UHGV virus genome: UHGV-0011358
Direction: 5' to 3' (one strand)
DNA: 56,349 nucleotides
DNA from: a virus
Below are positions 1-56,349 of the stretch, one piece after another (positions within the stretch are counted from its first letter, which is position 1; each line of letters starts with the position of its first letter). The translations under genes were made by a program, and so were the position numbers. The notes under the pieces were generated by a model. That model saw only the letters and a list, made by a program, of their open reading frames with translations. It did no database searches and had not been told where the DNA came from.

Positions 1-2
1 GT

Positions 3-626
3 CACCCTAATCAGTCATATATAACCAGTAAAGAGAACATTAAAGATATACCCCCTTGTATCCCCCCAGAAGAAAAACATGTCAATCAGGATGGTGCAAA
101 CGAAGCGGCATTGCGTTGCCTGGCCTTCTACAACGACAAGGCAGGATGCAAATGTCGTGATGCGAAGCCATTCATCGAACTACTGACAGAAACAAAAACA
201 CGTAAAGCGTATACGGAGGATGAGATCACATTAGTGATTGAGTGGGCTTTAACGCAATGGCGTAGCCGTGGCGGAACACCTAAACCTATCAACATTTGCC
301 GGGTAACTAAATTTGACGGGTATCTTGCTGATGCTGAACAATGGCGCAATCTGTCAGTTACTGTAAACGCTGCCGATGTGGTAAATGAGTTTAACATCAC
401 GTTTGATGGCCTGTTGCCACCTGCTGAACTGGATCGGGATCTTGAACGTAAAATATATGCGTTCACTGACTACCTGAAAAACAAAAGCATTAACGGATTT
501 ATCGCCTACTTTGAAGCATTCAAGAGCAAGGCTTCAGACTTTTACTTCGGCGATGGCTTCACGGCGACACTTGATTTCCTGCTTAAACCAAAAACGCTAC
601 GCGATACACGCGCAGGCGCTCTTTGA
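3..626 (+). CDS. 5'-truncated ORF with no in-frame ATG; probably the C-terminal part of a replication initiator
   Basis: Frame open from position 3; track ORF starts at TTG 111 and the 171 aa contain no Met. An AT-rich stretch at 10-60 precedes it. Confidence 0.45.
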   Translation, partial: HPNQSYITSKENIKDIPPCIPPEEKHVNQDGANEAALRCLAFYNDKAGCKCRDAKPFIELLTETKTRKAYTEDEITLVIEWALTQWRSRGGTPKPINICRVTKFDGYLADAEQWRNLSVTVNAADVVNEFNITFDGLLPPAELDRDLERKIYAFTDYLKNKSINGFIAYFEAFKSKASDFYFGDGFTATLDFLLKPKTLRDTRAGAL

Positions 627-994
627 CCAACCACGATCCACAAAAACCCAAAATAACCCGCAAAACAAGCTCGCCAGCGAGATAAATCGCATGTGGTGCT
701 ACACTTGCTTACCTTTTTGCGATTAGCTCGTTATAGAGCGTTACAGAGAGGATTTCAAAAAATGGACGGTAAACACGTTTTTGCCCTGGTCTTTGCCATC
801 GCTGCGGCAATCGCTGTTAACGTCGCTTTGTTCGGCGGTTTGTTCCTTCTAGTCAATCCATAACCTACCCACCATTCTGTAAATCAAAAATTAGCCACCT
901 GAGAGCGTCTATAACGCAATAAGACACTGCAACCTATGCAAACGGGTTACGCGGTGGAATTTTGCGTTGTAGAGCGTTTTACGGAGAAAATACA

Positions 995-1735
995 ATGTCT
1001 GATTTAATGGTTTTTGATGTCGATAGCGAAGTATTAATGATTTCATCGCGTGAAATAGCAGAAGCAACAGGCAAGGATCATTCTTCTGTGGTTGTGCGTG
1101 ATATTAAAAACATGCTGATCGATTTAGGGTTTACTGAGCATGATTTTTATCCTGCAAAAATGCAGGATTATGAATTTATAGGGTTTTTGTTTAAGTACAA
1201 GCACTACAACGGTCGCAACGTCATTGATGAGGTTTTGCTAAATAAAGAGCTAACAATGTGCTTGATCACTGGCTATGACGTTAAGCAACGCATGAAGGTA
1301 ATTAAACGCGTTAAAGAGTTGGAGGAGGCGCAACACAAACTAGCTTTGCCGGATTTCACTGATCCGGTTGCGGCAGCCCGCGCATGGGCGGATGAGGTAG
1401 AGCAAAAATTATTAGTTAAGCAAGAAAATGAACGGCTTACACTGGTTAACAAACAGCTTGCGCCAAAAGCTGCTGTATGTGACGCGATAGTCAAAAACGA
1501 TATGCACCGCACGGCTTCAGAGGTAGCTAAACCGCTGGGAATGTCAGCCGTAAAATTAAACAGAAAACTTTCGGCGGTTGGTGTTTACGATCTTCGCTGT
1601 CGCCGTCGTGTATTCAGTCAGTGGTTTATTGATGAGGGCTACGGTGAAATGAGGGTAACTTACGATGGATATGAGCAGGCTGTATTCACTGCTAAAGGAC
1701 AAGTATGGATCACTGAGCTTTTAACTTGTAACTAA
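995..1735 (+). CDS. antirepressor-like protein (Rha-like N-terminus, KilA-C-like C-terminus)
   Basis: N-terminal SSREIAEATGKDHSSVVRDI resembles phage Rha regulatory proteins; ATG 995 preceded by GGAG. Confidence 0.55.
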   Translation: MSDLMVFDVDSEVLMISSREIAEATGKDHSSVVVRDIKNMLIDLGFTEHDFYPAKMQDYEFIGFLFKYKHYNGRNVIDEVLLNKELTMCLITGYDVKQRMKVIKRVKELEEAQHKLALPDFTDPVAAARAWADEVEQKLLVKQENERLTLVNKQLAPKAAVCDAIVKNDMHRTASEVAKPLGMSAVKLNRKLSAVGVYDLRCRRRVFSQWFIDEGYGEMRVTYDGYEQAVFTAKGQVWITELLTCN

Positions 1736-1769
1736 GTATACAATTTGTTATTCGTGAGGAAATGACACT

Positions 1770-54785: not shown

Positions 54786-55432
54786 TTATGGCAGGTTTAC
54801 GATCTTCGCATCAACCACCACGCCTAAGATTTTTGATTCTGGATTCATAGGGATCGGCGGATACAACGGATTCAGTGAACGCAAAAGTTTTCGGCCTCCA
54901 TCAATAATCAATTGTTTAAACGTCGGTATTTGCCCTTCTTCGAGTTGAGCTATAACCAGTTTACCATCAATAGCTGGCGCGTGCGGGTCAATAAGTATCA
55001 TAGTACCGGCAGGGATGCTTAACCCCTGCGGTGCGTTCATTGATTCACCTTTAGCTACCAGCCAATAACTATCATCCGAACAAATAACGTTAGTAGTAAC
55101 ATGTGGCAATGTTGATCGGCGTATGCCTTCCATATTGTTTGCTACATCCTTCCAGTCAACAACCGGGTAACTGCCTAAATCACGCGGTGGCGCTCCCGGT
55201 AACGTGTTAGAAACAGAATCATCGATAACCATCCCGTCATGTGTGACAGTAAACTGCCGACGCCCAAGCGCCGCATGATCCGCGCAATATCTTCAAGATT
55301 TGGCTCACGGCGACCGTTCAGCCAGTGCGAAAGGCCACCTTTGGTTATCCCCATGAGATCAGCCAATGAATCCTGACTCATGCCCTGCGCCCGCATGAGC
55401 TGCTTTGCTAAGTCATACCATTTTGTTTTCAT
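54786..55432 (-). pseudogene. cI-like repressor (HTH N-terminus plus S24/LexA-like C-terminus) split by a frameshift near 55233
   Basis: HTH ORF 55175-55432 and S24 ORF 54786-55232 overlap in different frames; C-terminal part matches lambda CI cleavage domain by eye. Confidence 0.6.
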
Positions 55433-55735
55433 GTCGCTACCCTATAACCTAAAAAAGTTTGATGCAAGTCACAAAACGTGTTTTTCAAGCCTTGACCTGT
55501 TAAAGCCATTATGTAAACTTGCAGACAAGGTAAGGCCATAGTTGCAATGATGCAAGAAAAAAGATAAAGGAAAGCACAAAAGGCCAATTCCTTAAGCTCT
55601 TTAAAAATCTGGTGTCGCTGCGAAGCGAAAAACAAATATCACGCAACGGCGGGATCTGTTGAGCGGTCAGTCACTGCCATCTAATGCTAATGGGATGCCC
55701 GCCCGCGCGTTCACTCTAATCATAGGAGAAAGAAT

Positions 55736-55981
55736 ATGTATTACGTGCGCAAGGCTTTTGATATTCGCCTGAATAACAATGATCCGGCGCAAAAACTCAT
55801 CTTAATTGCACTGGCAACAAAGGCCGGATGCAACGGCAAAAGCGAAGTAACGCCAGAAGAGATCGCGGAAATGTGCGAAATTTCGTTACGCGATACTATC
55901 TCTGCACTGCATCAACTGAAAAGAAGCGGCCTAATCAGCCAGCTGCCAGGTTTCTTCTGCGTTTATCAGTTAATGTTTTAG
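55736..55981 (+). CDS. HTH protein, first rightward gene (Cro-position; paralog of next gene)
   Basis: 81 aa; GGAG RBS; paralogous to the N-terminus of the following ORF. Confidence 0.5.
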   Translation: MYYVRKAFDIRLNNNDPAQKLILIALATKAGCNGKSEVTPEEIAEMCEISLRDTISALHQLKRSGLISQLPGFFCVYQLMF

Positions 55982-55987
55982 TTCGTC

Positions 55988-56349
55988 ATGAGGTTAATGC
56001 TTATGAGTATGCGGCTAATGGTAGAGGTCTTCCATACTGAGGTCGGCGACCCAATGCACAAACTGGTGCTGTTGAAGTTAGCTGATAACGCTAATGATAA
56101 CGGAGAGTGTTATCCTTCTTACCATCACATAGCAAAGGAGTGTGAGATCAGCAAAAGAACAGCTATGAGGGCTGTAGACTCACTTTGTGAAAAAGGGTTG
56201 TTGATTAAACAACCAAGATACTTAATCGGAGGAAAAGAGCAAACTAGTAATTTCTATGTAATAGTCCTTCCGTCATTGCATGGTAGTGTCACTGTGACAC
56301 CGGGGGTAGTGTCACAGAGTCACTGGGGTAGTGTCACAGAGTCACTGGG
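55988..56349 (+). CDS. replication initiator-like HTH protein, N-terminal part (runs to window end)
   Basis: HTH domain followed by in-gene iterons; ORF reaches the window edge without a stop. Confidence 0.5.
   Translation, partial: MRLMLMSMRLMVEVFHTEVGDPMHKLVLLKLADNANDNGECYPSYHHIAKECEISKRTAMRAVDSLCEKGLLIKQPRYLIGGKEQTSNFYVIVLPSLHGSVTVTPGVVSQSHWGSVTESL
56282..56349. repeat. iteron array (three copies of a 22-23 bp repeat), candidate origin
   Basis: GGTAGTGTCACTGTGACACCGGG / GGTAGTGTCACAGAGTCACTGGG x2, truncated by the window end. Confidence 0.6.

Follow-up and report, generated by a model that had tools for sequence, protein, structure and literature searches.

The 56,349-nt UHGV virus genome UHGV-0011358, analysed over its whole length and referred to here as the window, carries its replication genes and its late genes on opposite strands. 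This odd strand layout is real, yet it is a published hallmark of the mEp021 (mEpimmI) group of Escherichia coli phages. The minus strand carries the genes for a cI-like repressor, an N-like antiterminator, Erf, SSB, NinG, RusA and Q, and those for lysis, head, tail and integrase (int), as listed in an earlier note on this DNA and as borne out by Pfam and PHROG matches. The same databases place the cro-like gene, the replication initiator, DnaB and NinB on the plus strand, in agreement with what the note had said of the replication genes and ninB. Its further statement that nothing else occurs on that strand fails, since three small plus-strand islands are found inside the tail module. The nin region is indeed split between the strands, such that NinB accompanies the replication genes and the NinF-like, NinG, RusA and Q genes follow the N-like arm. 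In lambda, ninG, rusA, Q and the late genes lie rightward after O and P, and the contrast in polarity that had been drawn with lambda is genuine.

Strand layout and relatives

A megablast search of phage records with the two halves of the window, of the kind that the earlier note had proposed, returned seven collinear relatives (mEp021, mEp010, mEp013, mEp044, mEp515, mEp554 and MagusPhagus) at 86–90% identity and 75–86% coverage. In a blastn map, the window is collinear with the reverse complement of mEp021 over the full length, with 80–93% nucleotide identity over ~75% of the window. Gene order and strands are also the same in the depositors' annotations of mEp021, MagusPhagus and mEp554, where one strand carries the xis-like gene and the genes for NinB, helicase, initiator and cro-like protein, and the other carries those for the repressor, N-like protein, Erf, SSB, NinF, NinG, resolvase, Q, lysis, head and tail, as well as int across attP. 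Matching prophages are present in complete E. coli genomes, with strain names that coincide with the list in a 2025 paper on the group (see below); the prophage of strain 127 has the same order, with int at its end beside a truncated abgT. A scan of IMG/VR, anchored on NinB and followed by tblastn with 18 window proteins, added ~42 contigs of 50–57 kb with NinB at 94% identity or more, and the order in all of them is ssb-, erf-, N-, cI- / cro+, rep+, exonuclease+, DnaB+, NinB+, gp03+, xis+ / int-, fibre-. The lambda-type arrangement is seen in three more distant NinB loci, where NinB is immediately followed by NinG on its own strand. Because these loci keep NinB and NinG adjacent, the split between the two genes is specific to the mEp021 group. 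A search for NinB in one-genome-per-species contigs found no relatives.

The mEp021 genome has been public since 2018 (GenBank MH706966). Negrete-Mendez et al. 2025 describe the mEpimmI phages as temperate, Nus-dependent and 'non-lambdoid', report siphovirus morphology and dependence on host Nus factors for the group, and state that in the original collection, made from human faeces, these phages matched lambdoid phages in frequency (PMC11893012). The 48 mEpimmI genomes analysed in that work show high synteny and form their own proteomic branch, for which a new family is proposed; neither viable recombinants nor DNA hybridisation with lambda were obtained, and Rep021 was shown to be the immunity repressor (PMC11893012). 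Prophages of the group reside in E. coli at ydaM, abgT or mppA, and its four integrase types target these three genes and one unmapped site (PMC11893012). The order that the earlier note had taken for unusual is thus no one-off rearrangement, but the conserved architecture of an already described group (PMC11893012; GenBank MH706966). The note itself had held that its reading would fall if close relatives with this same order were already well described, and they are, with a sequence from 2018 and descriptions from 2023 and 2025. An orientation artefact can likewise be ruled out, as the strands of the replication genes and of the Q and late genes relative to each other are independent of how the window is oriented.

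With mEp021 the window shares whole-genome homology and synteny, a Gp17-type N-like protein with arginines 17, 19, 20 and 24, and three nut sites (nutL, nutR1 and nutR2) at the positions seen in the group. It also has a repressor of the Rep021 type, with a Cro/CI helix-turn-helix (HTH) domain and an S24 domain, at ~90% nucleotide identity, although the window copy is frameshifted and its function doubtful. The tyrosine integrase is of the ydaM/abgT/mppA type, and the int region is 91% identical at the nucleotide level to the abgT-adjacent prophage of strain 127. A VIRIDIC-like calculation of intergenomic similarity gave 73% to mEp554, 67% to MagusPhagus and 66% to mEp021, values at which the window counts as a new species of the known group, close to the genus boundary. 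The NCBI taxonomy entry for phages of the mEp021 group is unclassified Caudoviricetes. What the window adds is a divergent genome for comparison, one that at ~70% intergenomic similarity keeps its three nut sites and its strand layout, together with local peculiarities in the form of a frameshifted repressor, four HNH open reading frames (ORFs), and an insertion before the lysis genes.

Genome form and completeness

We are confident, short of certainty, that the window is a temperate E. coli siphophage genome of the mEpimmI group, essentially complete and in circular form, opened inside the origin iterons. Both ends fall inside the array of 22–23-bp iterons (GGTAGTGTCACAGAGTCACTGG) of the replication initiator gene (56281–56349 and 1–10), where the repeat GGTAGTGTCAC... 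is present in three full copies and a truncated fourth, compared with four copies in mEp021. The halves of the initiator at the two window ends match one mEp021 protein, gp13 (residues 1–115 and 124–332 in tblastn); they are out of frame with each other, and ~14 missing nucleotides would restore the frame. The genome is complete save for these roughly 14 nt. In alignments to E. coli prophages of the group, matches on the int side end at 9253–9273 and matches on the tail side start at 9254–9327, and because the prophage matches split at 9254–9327, attP is intact and what the window represents is the free or circular form. Headful packaging, as suggested by the Sf6-like TerS, would account for an assembly that is circular and opened at an arbitrary point. 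The description of the window as a complete genome holds, apart from the missing nucleotides; its module order is not that of lambda, and the authors of the group's description call these phages non-lambdoid. No tRNA genes were found in a tRNA scan of the window, and no families in an Rfam scan of it.

The layout could conceivably result from a chimeric assembly, with the plus-strand replication block taken from one phage and the rest from another. The window ends in an iteron repeat array, where assemblers often break, and the strand switch at ~7.8 kb is abrupt: long ORFs are on the plus strand at 1–7737 and on the minus strand from 7913 nearly to the end. The GC skew is positive over 1–8000, negative from 8001–12000 and strongly negative at 36–56 kb, so that its change of sign coincides with the strand switch of the ORFs. 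However, both junctions are found in the same arrangement in more than 50 independent genomes, including cultured phages, complete E. coli chromosomes and IMG/VR contigs, and the initiator halves at the window ends match a single mEp021 protein. A chimera is ruled out by these collinear genomes, and we regard its probability as negligible.

Antitermination sites and immunity region

The 17-nt boxA motif GCTCTTTAAMAATCYGG is present in exactly three copies in the window, where 0.05 would be expected by chance, and no more than a few bases past each copy comes a short inverted repeat that could fold into a hairpin. When the sites are folded, the hairpin is the minimum-energy structure at 55596 and 46394, and is only partly recovered at 54573. 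The motif is found at the same places in mEp021, mEp554 and MagusPhagus, and its positions in the window correspond to those published for nutL, nutR1 and nutR2. The translated Gp17 homologue of the window contains an arginine-rich motif (R17, R19, R20, R21 and R24). Terminator-like sites on the early arm number 37 compared with 16.8 expected, an enrichment that fits an operon in need of processive antitermination. Section 3.5 of the 2025 paper, which cites Valencia-Toxqui et al. 2023 (Arch Virol 168:92), has the N-like Gp17 act at three nut sites, one upstream of the repressor (nutL), one ahead of gp17 (nutR1) and one downstream of gp32 (nutR2) (PMC11893012). The N- and Q-type antitermination and the cI/cro switch of lambdoid phages are recognised in the window by homology and motif alone.

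The arm with the N-like gene had been labelled a PL operon. In lambda, cI is upstream of, and co-directional with, PL-nutL-N, and cro is divergent from cI. Because the cI-like gene of the window is similarly co-directional with, and upstream of, the promoter, nut site and N-like gene, with the cro-like gene divergent, the label is structurally reasonable and the topology is that of lambda. The mEp021 authors, however, name the nut sites on this arm nutR1 and nutR2 (PMC11893012), since the arm leads to Q.

A deletion of one nucleotide (GGG to GG at ~55271–55273 on the minus strand) splits the repressor gene into an 85-aa HTH fragment and a 148-aa S24 ORF. The GGG is intact in mEp021, MagusPhagus, mEp554, the strain 127 prophage and 14 IMG/VR loci, and an exact-match search of IMG/VR found the GG variant in no contig. 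Either the GG allele marks a repressor-null (clear-plaque) variant, or it reflects an error in base calling. A 14-nt-arm inverted repeat around the minus-strand early promoter-like site may be an operator. As for other repeats in this region, the 12-nt near-palindrome AAAACGTGTTTT flanks the repressor gene with two oppositely oriented copies (54716–54727 and 55473–55484), near the two early promoter-like sites; these repeats are possible candidates for operator or regulator sites. The cro-like protein is 97.5% identical to gp14 of mEp021 and only ~35% identical to its counterpart in most IMG/VR relatives, and the repressor C-terminal domains of those same relatives are 86–96% identical. Within this one immunity group, the cro-like gene seems to be of at least two types.

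Late genes, int and accessory elements

The ~90 nt directly upstream of the holin gene (39390–39480, minus strand) are kept in each of the four genomes compared. The segment includes a -10-like element (TAAAAT/TAGCAT), a TAACAAT sequence ~10 nt downstream, and then the GC-rich terminator at 39429–39411, and its conservation begins only ~10 nt upstream of the -10-like element. It resembles a compact PR'-tR' unit and is a candidate for the Q-dependent late promoter and terminator. A late promoter was also sought just downstream of Q, where mEp021 has no gap, and a promoter candidate at 40330–40303 falls inside an ORF. Compared with mEp021, a 735-bp insertion (39470–40204) sits just before the conserved pre-holin segment, between terminators at 40205–40184 and 39429–39411. 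It carries a 232-aa ORF with a C-terminal DUF559/REase-like domain that recurs in Vibrio, Escherichia and Clostridium phages. No phage match was obtained for the N-terminal half of this ORF, and an exact-match search of IMG/VR for the insertion with the ORF found none. At this insertion and at the repressor deletion, the window thus does not coincide with an IMG/VR record.

The earlier note had Q and all late genes continue the leftward operon. They do run in the same direction as the early operon, but the late genes are probably a separate Q-dependent unit. Although int lies on the same strand, it is probably outside their transcription unit, as a strong terminator (9395–9372) and attP intervene. 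The integrase is 92–98% identical at the amino-acid level in uncultivated virus genomes (UViGs). Across IMG/VR loci, the identity of the xis-like protein tracks that of the integrase, at 92–97% where int is 92–98% identical and at ~39–51% where int is ~49–57% identical, which suggests that the two form a cognate excisionase–integrase pair. A strong plus-strand terminator-like hairpin (7790–7812) is located inside the xis-like ORF. The coordinates of these and the remaining features are given in Table 1.

Table 1 Features of the window, in order of position
Feature	Position	Strand	Basis or remark
Replication initiator, HTH_36/DnaD_N	55982 across ends to 626	+	C-terminal part matches O-like replication PHROGs
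Rha/ANT	962–1735	+	Pfam/PHROG
Exonuclease	1770–2900	+	
HNH endonuclease	2785–3393	+	
DnaB helicase	3428–4843	+	
MarR-like gene	within 1–7952	+	
Bro-N	5885–6445	+	
NinB	6455–6886	+	
gp03 homologue	7063–7737	+	tblastn
xis-like ORF	7737–7952	+	Overlaps int 3' end
Tyrosine integrase, abgT-targeting (type II in PMC11893012)	7913–9160	-	Pfam Arm-DNA-bind_3, Phage_integrase
attP region	9254–9327	.	E. coli prophages of the group split here
Strong intrinsic terminator ending late genes, before attP	9372–9395	-	
Packaging, head and tail genes	9425–36794	-	Pfam; collinear with mEp021 and MagusPhagus
Side tail fibre with S74 chaperone	9425–12745	-	
Island 1: small ORF and lipoprotein (superinfection-exclusion Lpp homologue)	12761–13168	+	91% aa identity to MagusPhagus lipoprotein
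Bidirectional terminator by island 1	13174–13200		
Tail tube, tape measure, lambda-like M/L/K/I/J	13203–27865	-	
Island 2: homologues of mEp021 gp74, gp73 and gp71 (annotated antirepressor)	20276–21052	+	tblastn 81–99%
Island 3: homologues of mEp021 gp68 and gp67 and of a MagusPhagus ORF	21933–22560	+	tblastn 84–90%
Sf6-like TerS, TerL, portal, MuF-like, capsid (DUF6260)	29707–36794	-	
Lysis cassette: holin, lysozyme, Rz-like spanin	38236–39386	-	Pfam Phage_lysozyme, Phage_lysis; holin 98% aa identity to mEp021 gp46
Conserved terminator directly upstream of holin (t5 equivalent)	39411–39429	-	Terminator scan; conserved -10-like element precedes
Variable block of small ORFs between Q and lysis genes	39430–43765	-	
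Q antiterminator	43766–44488	-	Antiterm PF03589, 1e-29
RusA	44674–45087	-	Pfam, 6e-17
NinG	45553–46248	-	Pfam, 2e-67
NinF-like gene	46176–46349	-	93% aa identity to mEp021 'putative NinF'
nutR2: boxA GCTCTTTAAAAATCCGG (46394–46410) and small hairpin	46378–46410	-	Just before NinF-like/NinG/RusA/Q
abc2 anti-RecBCD	52214–52492	-	phrog_656
SSB	52966–53415	-	Pfam
ERF	53415–54056	-	Pfam
N-like antiterminator (Gp17 homologue)	54206–54496	-	89.6% aa identity to mEp021 Gp17; phrog_271 'anti-termination protein N-like'
nutR1: boxA GCTCTTTAACAATCTGG (54573–54589) and boxB hairpin	54553–54589	-	Upstream of N-like gene
Early promoter-like site, TTGACT-17-TATATT (54661–54633)	54624–54661	-	Inside 14-nt-arm inverted repeat; putative lambda PL counterpart; function inferred
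Intrinsic terminator after repressor gene (t1 equivalent)	54763–54780	-	Terminator scan; position of TERM_1 in mEp021 annotation
C-terminal S24 (LexA-like) part of repressor, original frame	54786–55232	-	Pfam Peptidase_S24, E=4e-18; ~90% nt identity to Rep021
N-terminal HTH part of cI-like (Rep021-like) repressor	55175–55432	-	Pfam HTH_3, E=3e-13
Divergent early promoter-like site	55492–55519	+	Consensus match; structural counterpart of lambda PR
nutL: boxA 55596–55612, hairpin 55615–55628	55596–55628	+	After divergent promoter-like site; counterpart of lambda nutR
cro-like HTH gene	55736–55981	+	Pfam/PHROG
Three 22–23-bp iterons within initiator gene	~56281–56349	+	

Four ORFs of the HNH_3 type are found in the window, at 2785–3393 (+), 45029–45556 (-), 46550–47077 (-) and 51515–51979 (-), and each has the orientation of the operon around it. 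The ORF at 45029–45556, between NinG and RusA, lies in a stretch of window DNA (45075–45553) that does not align to mEp021, and the one at 46550–47077 takes the place of a cytosine methyltransferase gene in mEp021. All four are probably mobile homing endonucleases. The tape measure gene (22813–25968) encodes 1051 residues compared with 781 in mEp021; it is mostly unaligned to mEp021 and MagusPhagus, and matches mEp515 and several E. coli prophages. This difference suggests a different tail length class within the group.

Proposed regulatory circuit and origin of the layout

The immunity region is organised as in lambda and P22, with the cI-like repressor gene between two putative early promoters, each followed by a boxA/boxB nut site. 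The promoter divergent from the repressor would serve the cro-like gene, the O-like initiator with its iterons, DnaB, NinB and the xis-like gene, in an operon that would end head-on against int. From the promoter past the repressor terminator, transcription would proceed through Gp17, erf, ssb, abc2, methylases, accessory genes and nutR2 to the NinF-like, NinG, RusA and Q genes. Gp17 together with host Nus factors would modify RNA polymerase at the nut sites, such that terminators are read through and Q is reached. Q would in turn switch on the co-directional lysis, head and tail genes, in a unit that would end ahead of attP and int, at the strong terminator. Replication and late-gene activation are thus divided between opposite early operons, whereas PR of lambda carries both functions. 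By uncoupling the two, the layout constitutes a real variation on the lambda circuit, already on record. Antitermination by Gp17 at the three nut sites and the function of the repressor are carried over from the mEp021 literature, rather than shown here, and promoter use and the site of Q action, as well as the inversion considered below, are what we infer.

A different view of late expression would be that the late genes are transcribed by plain read-through of the N-modified early transcript, with Q either dispensable or acting elsewhere. The stretch from the N-like gene to the tail fibre reads in one direction apart from opposing blocks that do not exceed 0.8 kb, and a second nut site is located mid-operon, both of which would suit such a transcript. 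However, a full-length Q (PF03589) is conserved in the group and is a core gene (PMC11893012). In addition, several strong terminators are found between Q and the holin, and the holin is directly preceded by a conserved terminator and a conserved -10-like element, as in PR'-tR' units. Plain read-through appears improbable to us, and a separate Q-dependent late unit is the reading that we prefer.

With respect to origin, the module rearrangement suggested in the earlier note is plausible. Formally, the present map, nin split included, would follow from the P22/lambda order by one inversion of the arc between the far end of the PL arm and ninB. The layout may instead have been put together as an independent mosaic of modules, in which each arm gained its nin genes on its own, a proposal to which we give slightly less than an even chance. 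It agrees with nucleotide similarity to lambdoid phages being confined to the tail fibre genes, with head genes that are not those of lambda (Sf6-like TerS, MuF and DUF6260 capsid), and with the separate proteomic branch formed by the group (PMC11893012). The opposite orientation of int and the xis-like gene also goes beyond what a single inversion can explain, and no breakpoint repeats are seen. On the other hand, a single inversion gives the whole order xis, ninB ... DnaB, rep, cro / cI, N, erf, abc2 / ninF-like, ninG, rusA, Q, lysis, and after it each nin gene keeps its lambdoid neighbour; the adjacency of NinB and NinG in distant loci also speaks against mosaic assembly. Between mosaic assembly and a single inversion as such, we find the two about equally likely.

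A more elaborate account would start from a single ancient inversion in the early region of a P22/lambda-type ancestor, broken past the far end of the PL arm and again between ninB and ninF. In it, the extra nutR2, exactly at the nin/Q junction, would be an adaptation letting N-type antitermination reach Q from the other arm, and the window may be a naturally occurring variant of a new lineage that is repressor-null and obligately lytic. As a whole this account is tentative, and we think it rather unlikely to hold in all its parts. The inversion and the adaptive role of nutR2 are apparently not stated in the accessible portions of the papers on the mEpimmI group.

Several points weigh against the circuit and the history outlined above. 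Since the repressor is frameshifted, the window genome may be unable to form lysogens. The promoter-like sites are consensus matches that are not enriched over shuffles, and the transcription of the window genes, including the use of promoters, is read from the sequence. The Q-dependent late promoter was not located in the window, where Q is 4.3 kb upstream of the holin, and the inversion has left no sequence trace in the form of breakpoint repeats.

Comparison with known systems

As in lambda, a cI-type repressor with HTH and S24 domains is placed in the window between two early promoter-like sites with nut sites, upstream of the N-like gene and with the cro-like gene divergent. Antitermination of the N and Q types, the ninB and ninG genes, an O-like initiator with iterons inside its gene, the J/K/L/I/M tail tip genes, and an attP next to int are also common to the two. 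The window differs from lambda in that Q and the late genes are located behind the N arm and not behind the cro/replication arm, in the split of the nin genes and in the extra nutR2. It has ERF and SSB instead of Red, a DnaB helicase instead of P, and Sf6-like genes for headful packaging, and transcription of int leads away from attP and runs against that of the xis-like gene. The lambdoid module order, with replication, nin, Q and late genes on one arm, is not found in the window, and megablast of the window gave no lambdoid matches outside the tail fibre genes.

The map of P22 is well established, and several of its features recur here. The PL-type arm of P22 carries the N-like gene 24 followed by erf and abc2, and the erf, ssb and abc2 block of the window (52214–54056) contains recombination genes as in the P22 PL operon. 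A DnaB-type helicase is on the cro side in both and is followed by ninB, and the cro-like, initiator, DnaB and NinB arm of the window matches the PR operon of P22 and lambda up to ninB. In both phages, ninG through Q (gene 23 in P22) is upstream of lysis, and packaging is of the headful type or predicted to be so. In P22, which is a podovirus, the ninG–Q–late block comes after the replication arm, whereas in the window, with its siphovirus-type genes, it comes after the erf/abc2 arm.

Compared with the mEp021 group, the window differs in its four HNH endonuclease ORFs, the 735-bp insertion before the holin and the frameshifted repressor gene. It also lacks a homologue of mEp021 gp12, and a Rha/ANT gene takes that place. 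In whole-genome collinearity and strand layout, in the Rep021-type repressor, the arginine motif of Gp17 and the three nut sites, the window and the group are the same. Both have DnaB, the iteron-containing initiator and NinB on the replication arm, and the NinF-like, NinG, RusA and Q genes on the N arm, and they share the Sf6-like TerS, the lambda-like tail tip and the abgT-type integrase.

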